A stretch of 64,000 nt of DNA from Escherichia phage OLB145. This document shows, one piece after another, positions 28,344 to 38,873 of this stretch (its first letter is position 1; each line of letters begins with the position of its first letter). A program made the position numbers and the translations under genes. Where the stretch lies: the sequence record MH992123.1. One strand, given 5' to 3'. A model generated the notes under the pieces. The model saw nothing but the letters and a program-made list of their open reading frames with translations. It made no database searches and was not told the origin of the DNA.

Positions 28344-28372
28344 AGCCCCTCTAGTGAGGGGCATTTTTTATT
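28344..28372. terminator. bidirectional intrinsic terminator at the convergence of + and - strand transcription
   Basis: Stem GCCCCTC/GAGGGGC (28345-28351/28356-28362); T-tract ATTTTTTATT on the + side, AATTAAA (U-rich on the - strand) on the other. Confidence 0.7.
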
Positions 28373-37300: not shown

Positions 37301-38873
37301 CATCACGAATAGTAACTTCTGCTTCTGGTGCTTGAGCCATAGCTTCTTGTGCTGCCTGTGCAACATAGTCATCAGCAACAGGAGATGCTTCTTCATTCTG
37401 CTTCATAACCCGCTCACCACGAGCTACCAAAGTGTTCTTAATAGGGGAAACAACCTTACCTGCTACACTACCAGCAGCTTTAACACCAGCCATTGTGGTA
37501 CGCAATACAGGAGCAGTTGCAGCACCTGCTAAACGAGCAGCACCAGCCGGAGCCTGTACAACACCAGCAGAGCCAAAGCCATAAAGAGCACCTAAACCAG
37601 CTTGTGTACCGACACCTTTAAGCAGGTCTTGGTTCTTATCAATGTTTTGTTGCTGTGCAATATTCTGAGCCAGTTGTCCTGTAGCACCCTGAACACCTTC
37701 TTCCACTGTTTCACGGGCAAGGTTCATACCTACAGCACCTAAAGAACCAGCACGGAAAGGGGCCATCTCAAAACGAAATACCAGAGGACCAGTTGCAGCA
37801 GCAATAGGTAATTGAATAGCAGCAGCAGTAAGACCCGTTTCAGATGCAGTCTGACGACGAGCCTGTTCTGGAGACATACCATCTTTAATATGTTGCTGAT
37901 AAACAGGAGACTTCTCTAAGTCTTTAAGACTCATCTTCATAATTTCATCAGCAGTTTGTTGGTATGCACCACCAGCTTCTATTGCACCAACACCAACCAT
38001 ACCCGGTGCAGCTCTACCTACAGTAGAGGCAATACGAGCCAGTGACTGAGTACCAGTACCTGCATCAATAGCACCAGCCAATGCAGCACTACGAAGAGTA
38101 TTTGCTGGAACAACTGCTTTACCCAGTAAAGATGCACCCCTTAATACAGGACCAGCACCTAATAGAGAACCTACCCCTTCTGCTAACCCATCGGAAATAA
38201 TGGAGTCAGTTTGAGCAGCATTCTCAATTGAACCTACAAAATCACGTCCAAATTTAGATAAGGAAGCTACTATGTCATTAGTGCCTTCTTTCTTATCTGT
38301 TTGATACTGACGTTCACTCTCTACTTCATTCATTAAGTTACGAGCAGCAAAGAGCTTACGTTTATCTTGTAATGCCTGGCTTTGGGTAGCATGAACAGCA
38401 TCATTAAACTTACTCAATTGTTGAGCAACAACAGCACCTGCATCATCGTTGAGTAAGCCTGCCCCAAGAGCACCAATGCCCCCAAGGGTATTAACAAAAC
38501 CAAGACCAACACCAGTAGCAATATCACCCAGTTCTTCCCCAGGAGTTCTTGTAGTAACTGAATCATTGAATACCTGGTTCCCTGCATCAGCACGAGCATT
38601 GATAAGTTGTAAGCCTTGCTCAACCCCATACTTATTCATGATTTGCATTGGAGTCAGATTCATGAAATCTGATTGCACTGTCCCTGGTTCAAATGCATTA
38701 GCCCCAACATTACCAGTACGGGCAGCTTGCATTTGATAAGCAGCATCAGGAGAAACAAGAGGAGTAGTGACACCTTGTTCAGCTTTCTTCTGGGCGGTTG
38801 CAGTAGAGACGTCAACTTGCTTTGCATTGGTTACGCTGTCTGCGAACCCAGCCAGTCTATCAAATACTGACAT
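28371..38873 (-). CDS. virion-encapsidated RNA polymerase (vRNAP), giant single-subunit RNAP of N4-like phages
   Basis: Single uninterrupted ORF; track start 38891 is TTG, first ATG 38873 has AGGAAA 6 nt upstream and gives exactly 3500 aa, the length I recall for N4 gp50; position at the head of the late cluster. Confidence 0.8.
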   Translation of the reverse strand: MSVFDRLAGFADSVTNAKQVDVSTATAQKKAEQGVTTPLVSPDAAYQMQAARTGNVGANAFEPGTVQSDFMNLTPMQIMNKYGVEQGLQLINARADAGNQVFNDSVTTRTPGEELGDIATGVGLGFVNTLGGIGALGAGLLNDDAGAVVAQQLSKFNDAVHATQSQALQDKRKLFAARNLMNEVESERQYQTDKKEGTNDIVASLSKFGRDFVGSIENAAQTDSIISDGLAEGVGSLLGAGPVLRGASLLGKAVVPANTLRSAALAGAIDAGTGTQSLARIASTVGRAAPGMVGVGAIEAGGAYQQTADEIMKMSLKDLEKSPVYQQHIKDGMSPEQARRQTASETGLTAAAIQLPIAAATGPLVFRFEMAPFRAGSLGAVGMNLARETVEEGVQGATGQLAQNIAQQQNIDKNQDLLKGVGTQAGLGALYGFGSAGVVQAPAGAARLAGAATAPVLRTTMAGVKAAGSVAGKVVSPIKNTLVARGERVMKQNEEASPVADDYVAQAAQEAMAQAPEAEVTIRDAVEATDATPEQKVAAHQYVSDLMNATRFNPENYQEAPEHIRNAVAGSTDQVQVIQKLADLVNTLDESNPQALMEAASYMYDAVSEFEQFINRDPAALDSIPKDSPAIELLNRYTNLTANIQNTPKVIGALNVINRMINESAQNGSLDVTEESSPQEMQNVALAAEVAPEKLNPESVNVVLKHAADGRIKLNNRQIAALQNAAAILKGAREYDAEAARLGLRPQDIVSKQIKTDESRTQEGQYSALQHANRIRSAYNSGNFELASAYLNDFMQFAQHMQNKVGALNEHLVTGNADKNKSVHYQALTADREWVRSRTGLGVNPYDTKSVKFAQQVALEAKTVADIANALASAYPELKVSHIKVTPLDSRLNAPAAEVVKAFRQGNRDVASSQQKADSVNQVKETPVTKQEPVTSTVQTKTPVSEPVKTEPTTKESRPQAIKEPVSQSEKQDATLTNEDTIEQPTESVKETETSVKERTVTEELREGIDAVYPSLVGTADSKAEGIKNYFKLSFTLPEEQKSRTVGSEAPLKDVAQALSSRARYELFTEKEVANPAFNGEVIKRYKELMEHGEGIADILRSRLAKFLNTKDVGKRFAQGTEANRWVGGKLLNIVEQDGDTFKYNEQLLQTAVLAGLQWRLTATSNTAIKDAKDVAAITGIDQALLPEGLVEQFDTGMTLTEAVSSLAQKIESYWGLSRNPNAPLGYTKGIPTAMAAEILAAFVESTDVVENIVDMSEIDPDNKKTIGLYTITELDSFDPINSFPTAIEEAVLVNPTEKMFFGNDIPPVANTQLRNPAVRNTPEQKAALKAEQTTEFYVHTPMVQFYETLGKDRILELMGAGTLNKELLNDNHAKSLEGKNRSVEDSYNQLFSVIEQVRAQSEDISTVPIHYAYNMTRVGRMQMLGKYNPQSAKLVREAILPTKATLDLSNQNNEDFSAFQLGLAQALDIKVHTMTREVMSDELTKLLEGNLKPAIDMMVEFNTTGSLPENAVDVLNTALGDRKSFVALMALMEYSRYLVAEDKSAFVTPLYVEADGVTNGPINAMMLMTGGLFTPDWIRNIAKGGLFIGSPNKTMNEHRSTADNNDLYQASTNALMESLGKLRSNYASNMPIQSQIDSLLSLMDLFLPDINLGENGALELKRGIAKNPLTITIYGSGARGIAGKLVSSVTDAIYERMSDVLKARAKDPNISAAMAMFGKQAASEAHAEELLARFLKDMETLTSTVPVKRKGVLELQSTGAGAKGKINPKTYTIKGEQLKALQENMLHFFVEPLRNGITQTVGESLVYSTEQLQKATQIQSVVLEDMFKQRVQEKLTEKAKDPTWKKGDFLTQKELNDIQASLNNLAPMIETGSQTFYIAGSENAEVANQVLATNLDDRMRVPMSIYAPAQAGVAGIPFMTIGTGDGMMMQTLSTMKGAPKNTLKIFDGMNIGLNDITDASRKANEAVYTSWQGNPIKNVYESYAKFMKNVDFSKLSPEALEAIGKSALEYDQRENATVDDIANAASLIERNLRNIALGVDIRHKVLDKVNLSIDQMAAVGAPYQNNGKIDLSNMTPEQQADELNKLFREELEARKQKVAKAKAEVKEETVSEKEPVNPDFGMVGREHKASGVRILSATAIRNLAKISNLPSTQAATLAEIQKSLAAKDYKIIYGTPTQVAEYARQKNVTELTSQEMEEAQAGNIYGWTNFDDKTIYLVSPSMETLIHELVHASTFEEVYSFYQGNEVSPTSKQAIENLEGLMEQFRSLDISKDSPEMREAYADAIATIEGHLSNGFVDPAISKAAALNEFMAWGLANRALTDKQKRTSSLVQMVKDVYQAIKKLIWGRKQAPALGEDMFSNLLFNSAILMRSQPTTQAVAKDGTLFHSKAYGNNERLSQLNQTFDKLVTDYLRTDPVTEVERRGNVANALMSATRLVRDVQSRGFNMTAQEQSVFQMVTAALATEAAIDPHAMARAQELYTHVMKHLTVEHFMTDPDSTNPADRYYAQQKYDTISGANLVEVDAKGRTSLLPTFLGLAMVNEELRSIIKEMPVPKADKKLGNDVDTLLTNAGTQVMESLNRRMAGDQKATNVQDSIDALSETIMTAALKRESFYDAVATPTGNFIDRANQYVTDSIERLSETVIEKADKVIANPSNVAAKGVAHLAKLTAAIASEKQGEIVAQGVMTAMNQGKVWQPFHDLVNDIVGRTKTNANVYDLIKLVKSQISQDRQQFREHLPTVIAGKFSRKLTDTEWSAMHTGLGKTDLAVLRETMSMAEIRDLLSSPKKVKDEISTLEKEIQNQAGRNWNLVQKKSKQLAQYMITGEVGNNLLRNAHAISRLLGERITNGPVADVAAIDKLITLYSLELMNKSDRDLLSELAQSEVEGMEFSIAYMVGQRTEEMRKAKGDNRTLLNHFKGYIPVENQQGVNLIIADDKEFAKLNSQSFTRIGTYQGSTGFRTGSKGYYFSPVAARAPYSQGILQNVRNTAGGVDIGTGFTLGTMVAGRITDKPTVERITKALAKGERGREPLMPIYNSKGQVVAYEQSIDPNMLKHLNQDNHFAKMVGVWRGRQVEEAKAQRFNDILIEQLHAMYEKDIKDSSANKSQYVNLLGKIDDPVLADAINLMNIETRHKAEELFGKDELWVRRDMLNDALGYRAASIGDVWTGNSRWSPSTLDTVKKMFLGAFGNKAYHVVMNAENTIQNLVKDAKTVIVVKSVVVPAVNFLANIYQMIGRGVPVKDIAVNIPRKTSEINQYIKSRLRQIDAEAELRAAEGNPNLVRKLKTEIQSITDSHRRMSIWPLIEAGEFSSIADAGISRDDLLVAEGKIHEYMEKLANKLPEKVRNAGRYALIAKDTALFQGIQKTVEYSDFIAKAIIYDDLVKRKKKSSSEALGQVTEEFVNYDRLPGRFRGYMESMGLMWFYNFKIRSIKVAMSMIRNNPVHSLIATVVPAPAMFGNVGLPIQDNMLTMLAEGRLDYSLGFGQGLRAPTLNPWFNLTH

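Follow-up and report, generated by a model that had tools for sequence, protein, structure and literature searches.

The gp50 Gene and Its Product

The minus strand of the window (the whole stretch of 64,000 nt analyzed here) carries a single uninterrupted 10.5-kb ORF at 28371..38891, 3506 aa long when counted from the TTG at its beginning. The initial annotation had called this ORF the gene for a 3500-aa virion RNA polymerase (vRNAP), and the gene and its parts are as follows.

28371..38873, minus strand: gp50 vRNAP coding sequence, 3500 aa plus stop (28371–28373), from the ORF, its translation and the GenBank CDS coordinates of N4, 3HA13 and AL25
35882..38873, minus strand: N-terminal domain and low-complexity linker, aa 1–997, domain limits per PMC4496689 and PMC13434306
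32565..35881, minus strand: polymerase ("mini-vRNAP") domain, aa 998–2103, from PDB 2PO4/3C2P/3Q0A (E = 0), four Pfam vRNAP domains and motifs
28374..32564, minus strand: C-terminal domain, aa 2104–3500, from PDB 9PNR/11FW, with residues 1008–3500 covered
28345..28362, both strands: bidirectional terminator-like hairpin, 9 nt past the gp50 stop, from a scan on both strands and gene orientation

The identification as a vRNAP is borne out by a full-length alignment to PDB chains 11gp_A and 9pnr_A (1–3500 to 1–3500, 7,640 bits), by four Pfam vRNAP domains with E-values of 1e-22 to 3e-97, and by the comparison with N4 gp50 and the mini-vRNAP motifs that the initial annotation had suggested, in which every polymerase motif is present. 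Schitoviridae vRNAPs are encoded by giant ORFs of about 3,400–3,600 codons, and the ORF at 28371–38873 has 3,500. The gene and its upstream spacer show 99.7% nucleotide identity to phage 3HA13 and 97.8% to N4. Judged by sequence, the product is coliphage N4 gp50, the virion RNA polymerase, and the window is a strain of Enquatrovirus N4. No identical protein was on record when the exact 3,500-aa sequence was looked up.

A T7-like polymerase domain (aa 998–2103) forms the middle of the protein, flanked by an N-terminal and a C-terminal domain. The TxxGR motif reads TRVGR (1417–1421), motif A is EAD (E1554/D1556), motif B has K1667/Y1675, and motif C is FDG (D1948). Ejection of gp50 comes after that of gp52 and gp51, and early genes are then transcribed from hairpin promoters. 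The residues that contact the promoter hairpin, K1111/R1116/W1126 (also given as K114/R119/W129), stand at the expected positions (PMC4496689). N4 virions carry gp50 and eject it into the host cell (PMC4496689, PMC13434306), and the C-terminal domain has been assigned roles in encapsidation and autoinhibition (PMC13434306; PMC13492108). Two plus-strand ORFs lie antisense within gp50 (31998–32384 and 36228–36644); they have no family matches and their composition is unremarkable. N4 gp50 has been under study for decades, and cryo-EM structures of the full-length protein came out in 2026. The gene is thus already known and by itself brings nothing new; the initial finding was correct, if ordinary.

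Place of gp50 in the Late Block

Every ORF between 28371 and 62741 is read from the minus strand, where gp50 lies downstream of the gp52–gp51 ejection-protein genes, the arrangement expected of a Schitoviridae vRNAP gene (PMC13434306). Since N4 late transcription runs leftward (PMC4496689), the minus-strand block begins at 62741 and finishes at 28371, which makes gp50 its last, promoter-distal gene. The initial annotation had it heading the late strand; instead it closes the leftward block, at the tail of the late transcription unit. The hairpin at 28345–28362 marks the end of both this block and the convergent rightward block. Elsewhere in the late genes, two disruptions are apparent in the sequence, either of which may be real or an assembly error: a homing-endonuclease scar that disrupts the start of gp51 (40871–40911), and a frameshift in the terminase large-subunit gene (gp68, near 61456).

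The gp51–gp50 Spacer

The gp51 stop codon (38976–38974) is followed by a 100-nt gap before gp50. This spacer is identical in the window and N4, and its identity to KP8 and Gamaleyavirus is 75–86%, compared with 62–75% for the flanking coding DNA. The following features lie in or relate to it.

38937..38958, minus strand: intrinsic-terminator-type stem-loop (38958–38939, UUCG tetraloop) with T-run (38942–38937), from fold, conservation and annotation
38910..38929, minus strand: second hairpin, a palindrome UUACACUA-GGUA-UAGUGUGA containing TATAGT (38919–38914), from fold, covariation and invariant columns
38881..38902, minus strand: nearly invariant block ATAGATATAAGTTTG-A-AGGAA including TATAAG (38898–38893), from invariant alignment columns and a related motif at 62762–62750
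38889..38891, minus strand: in-frame TTG chosen by mechanical ORF calling, no real start, with no ribosome-binding site upstream and variable codons
38881..38885, minus strand: Shine-Dalgarno sequence AGGAA for ATG 38873, invariant in 12 Enquatrovirinae sequences, with duplex energy
62750..62762, minus strand: TAGATAATTTGTA, immediately before the first late gene, gp69, and the window's only other copy of the motif in front of gp50

A terminator-like hairpin had been placed at 38931–38958, its boundary 57 nt from ATG 38873. The stem-loop is found at 38958–38939 (AAAAGCCC-UUCG-GGGCUUUU), with an 8-bp stem, a predicted energy of −11.2 kcal/mol (z = −4.0; 0/200 shuffles equally stable) and a U6 run. 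It is kept, with altered stems, in five lineages (Enquatrovirinae, Rothmandenesvirinae, Erskinevirinae, Zurivirus and Pokkenvirus), and a terminator is annotated at the matching hairpin in AL25 and Pokken. It is a genuine conserved stem-loop of the terminator type, putative in its action, and because its stem has only four G-C pairs it is probably of moderate strength. A generic terminator scan did not list it, which we attribute to the extended stem taking part of the T-run required after the stem. Other late spacers carry similar hairpins.

The second hairpin (−8.1 kcal/mol, z = −2.6) has a stem that persists through six sequence variants, its loop ranging from 4 to 8 nt. The TATAGT within it has A at −11 and T at −7, and its position is conserved across lineages. 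The T, A, A, G and T of TAnAGT are invariant in a 12-sequence alignment of Enquatrovirinae, and the counterparts in position are TGGTAGACT/TGGTAAACT in Rothmandenesvirinae, GGTAGACT in Zuri, TAAATT in Frozen and TGCTATCGT in Pokken, with T-12, A-11 and T-7 retained in every lineage. This pattern makes TATAGT, rather than TATAAG, most likely the better −10 candidate. The block at 38881..38902 would be either a 5′-leader element or an alternative late-promoter core; at the gp69 position, KP8 and St11Ph5 have AATAGACATAACTTTGTAG or AATAGACATAACTTTATAG.

Neither a −35 hexamer at 16–18 bp from TATAGT, a position that falls in the terminator T-run, nor a purine at the usual start-site distance downstream of it is present, and a generic σ70 scan found no promoter in the spacer. 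N4 late promoters resemble the σ70 consensus only weakly (PMC9163698), so that a −35 element may not strictly define them; the lack of a scan match fits this weak likeness, but would also be expected if there were no promoter. An Rfam search of the spacer returned NsiR1 alone, at chance level (E = 0.43). Cho et al. (1995) reportedly published N4 late-promoter sequences; these were outside the literature searched, in which no 5′ or 3′ ends of N4 transcripts were found. Two other roles considered for the second hairpin fare poorly. It is no vRNAP-type early promoter, as it is found on the late strand and has a loop of 4–8 nt instead of 3 nt, and an operator for a dimeric protein is disfavored by the varying half-site spacing (4, 6 or 8 nt).

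Control of gp50 Expression

Taken as a whole, the reading that we favor, and consider very probable, is that this is gene 50 of an N4 strain, translated from ATG 38873 into a three-part vRNAP, last of the late genes and preceded by what we infer to be a control cassette. The leftward late block is transcribed by the host σ70 RNA polymerase with N4SSB (gp45), gp50 coming last. The 100-nt spacer would then act as a conserved cassette: the small terminator may attenuate read-through from gp52–gp51; a weak σ70-type promoter without a −35 element would follow, its −10 most likely TATAGT within the conserved hairpin; and the conserved leader downstream would carry the ribosome-binding site. Jointly, terminator, promoter and leader could set the dose of gp50 low relative to gp51. 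The hairpin statistics, the retention of the terminator in five lineages, the conservation of the spacer and of TAnAGT, and the copy numbers in the N4 virion (a gp51 decamer as against 4 ± 1 copies of gp50; PMC13434306) all count for the cassette. Against it, both structural papers call gp52–gp51–gp50 one operon. Against TATAGT in particular, the invariant block holding TATAAG recurs before gp69 and could be the late-promoter core instead.

As a source of gp50, read-through of the terminator is equally possible as a promoter of its own. In its strict form, gp50 has no promoter and depends on partial read-through from promoters upstream of gp52–gp51, all three genes forming one operon, and the conserved sequences after the terminator act as RNA, for example as a leader hairpin that stabilizes the mRNA or tunes translation. 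We hold this form to be a serious possibility, if short of probable. The terminator core has few G-C pairs and a short U-run, the similar hairpins in other late spacers suggest stepwise read-through, and measurements in LUZ7 put more than 60% of terminators below 50% efficiency (PMC9163698). The three genes are termed an operon in N4 (PMC13434306) and are co-transcribed in phage DEV (PMC11445570), which, however, has no spacer at all. That the loop of the second hairpin varies while its stem covaries is easier to reconcile with a folded strand than with a protein-binding site; on the other hand, T-12, A-11 and T-7 of the −10-like hexamer are kept at the same place in five lineages that are otherwise unalignable around it. 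In the predicted fold of the window, pairing between the leader and the ribosome-binding site is possible, but as a conserved feature such a sequestering hairpin is only partly supported, since only about half the relatives are predicted to form it.

The initial annotation had instead pointed to a TATAAG −10-like element. The hexamer is indeed present on the minus strand at 38898–38893, and the promoter core could be this block, or TAAGTT (38896–38891) in another register. GATATAAGTTTG is invariant in the 12 Enquatrovirinae sequences, and elsewhere in the 64-kb window a similar motif occurs just once, closely upstream of gp69, a gene that, being the first of the late block, needs a nearby promoter; the N4 copy there reads TAGATAAT, a good −10 element, and the TAAnTT register retains T-12, A-11 and T-7 in the copies before gp50 and gp69. 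As a −10 element, however, TATAAG is weak: it has G at −7, where σ70 almost obligatorily needs T, and the block is unconserved outside Enquatrovirinae (in Rothmandenesvirinae, Erskinevirinae, Zurivirus and Pokkenvirus). The transcript would begin at or beside the ribosome-binding site, a start about 7 nt downstream giving a leader of only 11–12 nt, and KP8 and St11Ph5 have second motif copies (GACATAAGTAGG, GAGATAAGTATG) that do not match the TAAnTT register. We regard this placement of the promoter as unlikely.

If the cassette reading with TATAGT holds, the spacer may represent an undescribed dosage control of the vRNAP, combining a weak terminator, a −35-less promoter with its −10 in a covarying hairpin, and a leader motif shared with gp69. 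It would be found in no fewer than five Schitoviridae lineages, with Litunavirus lacking it. We advance this broader proposal tentatively and with some doubt. The question it addresses is a modest one, namely how a 383-kDa protein comes to be present at about four copies per virion when the proteins encoded just upstream are present at ten or more, and the conserved terminator and promoter-like spacer are a concrete and easily testable candidate for such copy control. Were the hairpin needed for promoter use, the reliance of N4 on hairpin DNA would extend from its own polymerases to late transcription by the host polymerase.

Translation Start

Translation begins at ATG 38873 (38873–38871), served by AGGAA, and TTG 38891, picked by mechanical ORF calling, is an artefact. 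Both codons lie where the initial annotation had placed them, the ATG 18 nt inside the ORF and giving 3500 aa plus stop, and its choice of this ATG, with a good Shine-Dalgarno sequence, as the true start agrees with database annotations, the onset of homology and ribosome-binding energetics. The ATG is the annotated start in nine records (N4, 3HA13, AL25 and six more distant relatives), which cover three genera each of Enquatrovirinae and Rothmandenesvirinae. Protein homology starts exactly at Met1, with M-S-(T/V)-F-D-R-L-A-G invariant from there on; the expected N-terminus is (M)SVFDRLAGFADSVTNAK, and translation from the TTG would add LYRKPT... upstream of Met1. AGGA stands 8 nt from the ATG, and the predicted duplex with the 3′ end of 16S rRNA is −4.2 kcal/mol at AGGAA, whereas the 20 nt preceding the TTG give −1.0 kcal/mol.

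A 3,506-residue protein starting at TTG 38891 is extremely improbable, and we reject it: although the frame is open from 38909 and the in-frame TTG is kept in all Enquatrovirinae (because it falls in the invariant block), the codon has no ribosome-binding site and is confined to that subfamily, Rothmandenesvirinae having no start codon at the equivalent position; the six intervening codons behave as non-coding, varying non-synonymously (Y/N, K/N, P/H/Q/S, T/A) next to 13 almost invariant residues; and every database annotation, as well as the recombinant 3,500-aa protein whose structure was solved, begins at the ATG. In practice, the ATG should replace the ORF caller's TTG as the start of gp50. 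This is no new insight, since the GenBank annotation has it already.

Comparison with Known Systems

N4 gp50 (AAO24831.2; PDB 2PO4, 3C2P, 3Q0A, 9PNR, 9PNQ, 11GP) has the same length of 3,500 aa, start codon and motifs as the protein described here, and the same neighbors, with gp49 convergent and gp51–gp52 upstream. The two genes share the 97.8% nucleotide identity given above, and the proteins differ at 32 of 3500 residues, 11 of them in the linker stretch aa 907–1006. The closest database record is vB_EcoP_3HA13 (MK931297), whose AC3HA13_500 has identical CDS coordinates after a shift of 6141; differences from the window are found in the tRNA region near 26000–27000, at the gp51 start and in gp68.

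The T7-like single-subunit RNA polymerases share TxxGR, which reads DxxGR in T7, as well as motifs A, B and C, and these elements have the same catalytic roles in both (PMC4496689). The likeness is limited to these motifs: the N4 enzyme has N-terminal and C-terminal extensions of ~1,000 and 1,400 aa, and unlike the T7-like enzymes it is packaged, ejected and recognizes single-stranded hairpin promoters.

In Pseudomonas phage DEV (Litunavirus), gp73–gp72–gp71 encode a small membrane protein, a tunnel protein and the vRNAP in the same order on the late strand, and their co-transcription has been shown by RT-PCR (PMC11445570). This says little about N4, because DEV has no spacer: its gp72 and gp71 abut, with no terminator, whereas a terminator-bearing spacer of 80–110 nt is present in N4 and no fewer than four further lineages.

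Identity and start of gp50

On sequence comparison the 10.5-kb ORF is N4 gene 50, as the initial annotation had proposed in calling it an N4-like virion RNA polymerase (vRNAP) gene. Identity over the entire gene plus the spacer that separates it from gp51 is 99.7% to Escherichia phage vB_EcoP_3HA13 (3HA13) and 97.8% to N4; for the 1.1 kb spanning the gp50 start, the values are 100% and 99.4%. The product differs from N4 gp50 at 32 of 3,500 residues, 11 of them within the low-complexity linker (residues 907–1006; limits taken from PMC13434306). In the PDB, chains of the complete gp50 (11GP, 9PNR) align 1–3500 to 1–3500, mini-vRNAP crystal structures match residues 997–2103, and a Pfam search returns four vRNAP-specific domains. 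The polymerase motifs were all located, at the gp50 positions expected from mini-vRNAP numbering (PMC4496689):

K1111/R1116/W1126, promoter-hairpin contact residues
1417–1421, TxxGR
E1554, D1556, motif A
K1667, Y1675, motif B
D1948, motif C

The open frame extends from 38891 to 28371 on the minus strand, 3,506 codons when counted from the TTG of the ORF call, and translation from the internal ATG gives exactly 3,500 aa. Three elements bear on the choice of start:

38891–38889, minus, TTG
38885–38881, minus, AGGAA
38873–38871, minus, ATG, 18 nt inside the TTG-started frame

The initial annotation preferred the ATG with its Shine-Dalgarno sequence, and this is the true start. The GenBank CDS of N4, 3HA13, and AL25 corresponds to 28371–38873, and the homologous ATG is the annotated start in KP8, St11Ph5, EC1-UPM, Axy10, inbricus, and JWAlpha. 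In the N-terminus alignment, M-S-(T/V)-F-D-R-L-A-G is invariant from Met1 on across two subfamilies; the six codons from TTG to ATG carry non-synonymous changes among Enquatrovirinae, and Rothmandenesvirinae spacers have no start codon at the position equivalent to TTG 38891. The predicted duplex with the 16S rRNA 3' end is −4.2 kcal/mol for AGGAA versus −1.0 kcal/mol for the stretch before TTG. The ATG is already the existing annotation, so its choice brings no new insight.

Place in the transcription map

The substantial ORFs at 155–28333 all lie on the plus strand, and those at 28371–62741 all on the minus strand. In N4, late RNAs are leftward transcripts of the genome's right half (PMC4496689, section 2.3). 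This makes gp50 the final gene of the leftward late block, and the earlier statement that it heads the late strand is wrong. Its end is followed by:

28345–28362, both strands, terminator-scoring hairpin 9 nt past the gp50 end, common to convergent gp49

Matches to sigma70-like promoters are depleted at 27000–41500 (11 versus 30.4 ± 5.7 in shuffles); one possible reason is that stray initiation by the host polymerase within the giant gene is selected against. Most of the longer late-block spacers hold a strong G+C hairpin on the minus strand (44946–45024, 45652–45713, 52502–52604, 53859–53890, 58040–58080), followed by T-runs before gp54 and gp63; this suggests a late transcription unit with a chain of partial terminators.

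Conserved elements of the gp51–gp50 spacer

The spacer is 100 nt long, and its homologues were gathered from phage records and IMG/VR contigs. The ORF, ATG, Shine-Dalgarno sequence, TATAAG, and hairpin of the initial annotation all lie where it placed them. The elements considered here, all on the minus strand, are:

38976–38974, gp51 stop codon
38958–38939, stem-loop AAAAGCCC-TTCG-GGGCTTTT, then a T-run
38929–38910, second hairpin, the first conserved element after the terminator, its stem kept across sequence versions
38902–38881, second conserved element, ATAGATATAAGTTTG-A-AGGAA, nearly invariant
38898–38893, TATAAG, inside the preceding block
62762–62750, TAGATAATTTGTA, then GGAAG, then ATG, immediately before the first late gene, gp69

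The terminator-type hairpin folds at −11.2 kcal/mol (z = −4.0; 0 of 200 shuffles fold as well), and terminator stem-loops with differing stem sequences occupy this spacer in Enquatrovirinae, Rothmandenesvirinae, Erskinevirinae (Frozen), Zurivirus, and Pokkenvirus. Between Enquatrovirinae and the window the spacer is 75%–86% identical and the flanking coding DNA 62%–75%; the spacer is thus under constraint.

The second hairpin occurs with six versions of its stem (ACACUA/UAGUGU, CACACU/AGUGUG, UUCACU/AGUGAA, CUCACU/AGUGAG, CUUACU/AGUAAG, UCACUA/UAGUGA) and loops of 4–8 nt across relatives. Its 3' half contains TAnAGT, in which T, A, A, G, and T are invariant in the Enquatrovirinae alignment; other lineages have TGGTAGACT or TGGTAAACT, GGTAGACT, TAAATT, or TGCTATCGT at this position. 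In a sigma70 −10 element, T-12, A-11, and T-7 matter most, and these three are retained in all lineages compared. The published literature we searched makes no mention of such a −10-like hexamer, conserved in position and lying within a covarying hairpin.

The block at 38902–38881 is nearly invariant inside Enquatrovirinae, and its conservation stops at that subfamily. The only other related copy in the 64 kb of the motif preceding the gp50 ribosome-binding site is TAGATAATTTGTA before gp69, where KP8 and St11Ph5 have AATAGACATAACTTT(G/A)TAG. This common motif, of which the published literature we searched makes no mention, may be a late-promoter or leader element.

How gp50 expression may be set

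We propose that the terminator would lower read-through from gp52–gp51, and that downstream of it a weak promoter without a −35 element would add a controlled amount of gp50 mRNA. The −10 of this putative promoter is most likely TATAGT (38919–38914, minus). Such a scheme would fit gp51 being a decamer versus 4 ± 1 copies of gp50 per virion (PMC13434306). The main rival is that gp50 is expressed by read-through only, the conserved spacer elements acting at the RNA level; hairpins are also present in other late spacers of the window, and LUZ7 offers a documented case of stepwise read-through (PMC9163698). A literature search for N4 transcript 5'- or 3'-end data found none. Another rival takes the block with the initial annotation's TATAAG as the promoter core. 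Its recurrence at gp69 speaks for this, but sigma70 requires T at the last −10 base (−7), where TATAAG has G, and the block is narrowly conserved, so that it is a weak guess.

Irregularities in gp51 and gp68, and mosaicism

Codons 2–12 of gp51 (40911–40871, minus) are replaced by a same-length segment that stops the frame twice, M S H * ... * (ATG AGT CAT TGA ... TAG); the first remaining start, ATG 40830, gives 618 aa versus 644 and has no ribosome-binding site. Phage VEc25 has an insertion of ~590 bp whose 5' junction is identical to 29 nt of this segment (40902–40874). The insertion carries a 178-aa ORF (vec25_55) with matches to PHROG families whose annotation is HNH endonuclease, so the segment resembles the scar of a homing-endonuclease gene that was gained and later lost. 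The terminase large-subunit gene gp68 (60465–62057, minus) has a 1-nt deletion near 61456 (GGCTT-CATTG versus AGCTTCCATTG in N4) that frameshifts it into two ORFs, 60465–61427 and 61424–62098. The extra base is present in 14 of the 14 close relatives listed; the deletion may stem from faulty sequencing or assembly, or the genome may be defective. Both defects, in gp51 and in gp68, may be real or may be assembly errors. No record of the phage collection is identical to the window. At 26000–27000, the tRNA region in 3HA13, the window has ~285 ungapped mismatches to 3HA13 versus 2 to N4, whereas outside it is closer to 3HA13. Either the genome is thus mosaic, put together from N4-type strains, or there is an indel in 3HA13 at this place.

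Comparison with known systems

In phage DEV, a Litunavirus (L040, 24822/24823), the vRNAP gene abuts gp72, and spacer and terminator are both absent; in phage R7L (L044, 509–564) a terminator is not evident, and the fold of the 56-nt spacer pairs the start codon region. Judged from these spacers, the terminator cassette is lineage-specific within Schitoviridae. The initial annotation read the region largely correctly, apart from placing gp50 at the head of the late strand and from its weak guess at the −10 element. The gp50 gene, its product, start codon, and role are all already known, and at least two database records already predict the terminator (it is annotated as such in AL25 and Pokken). 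As for the −10-like hexamer within its covarying hairpin and the motif that recurs at gp69, these are regulatory details on a small scale and do not amount to a new kind of system.
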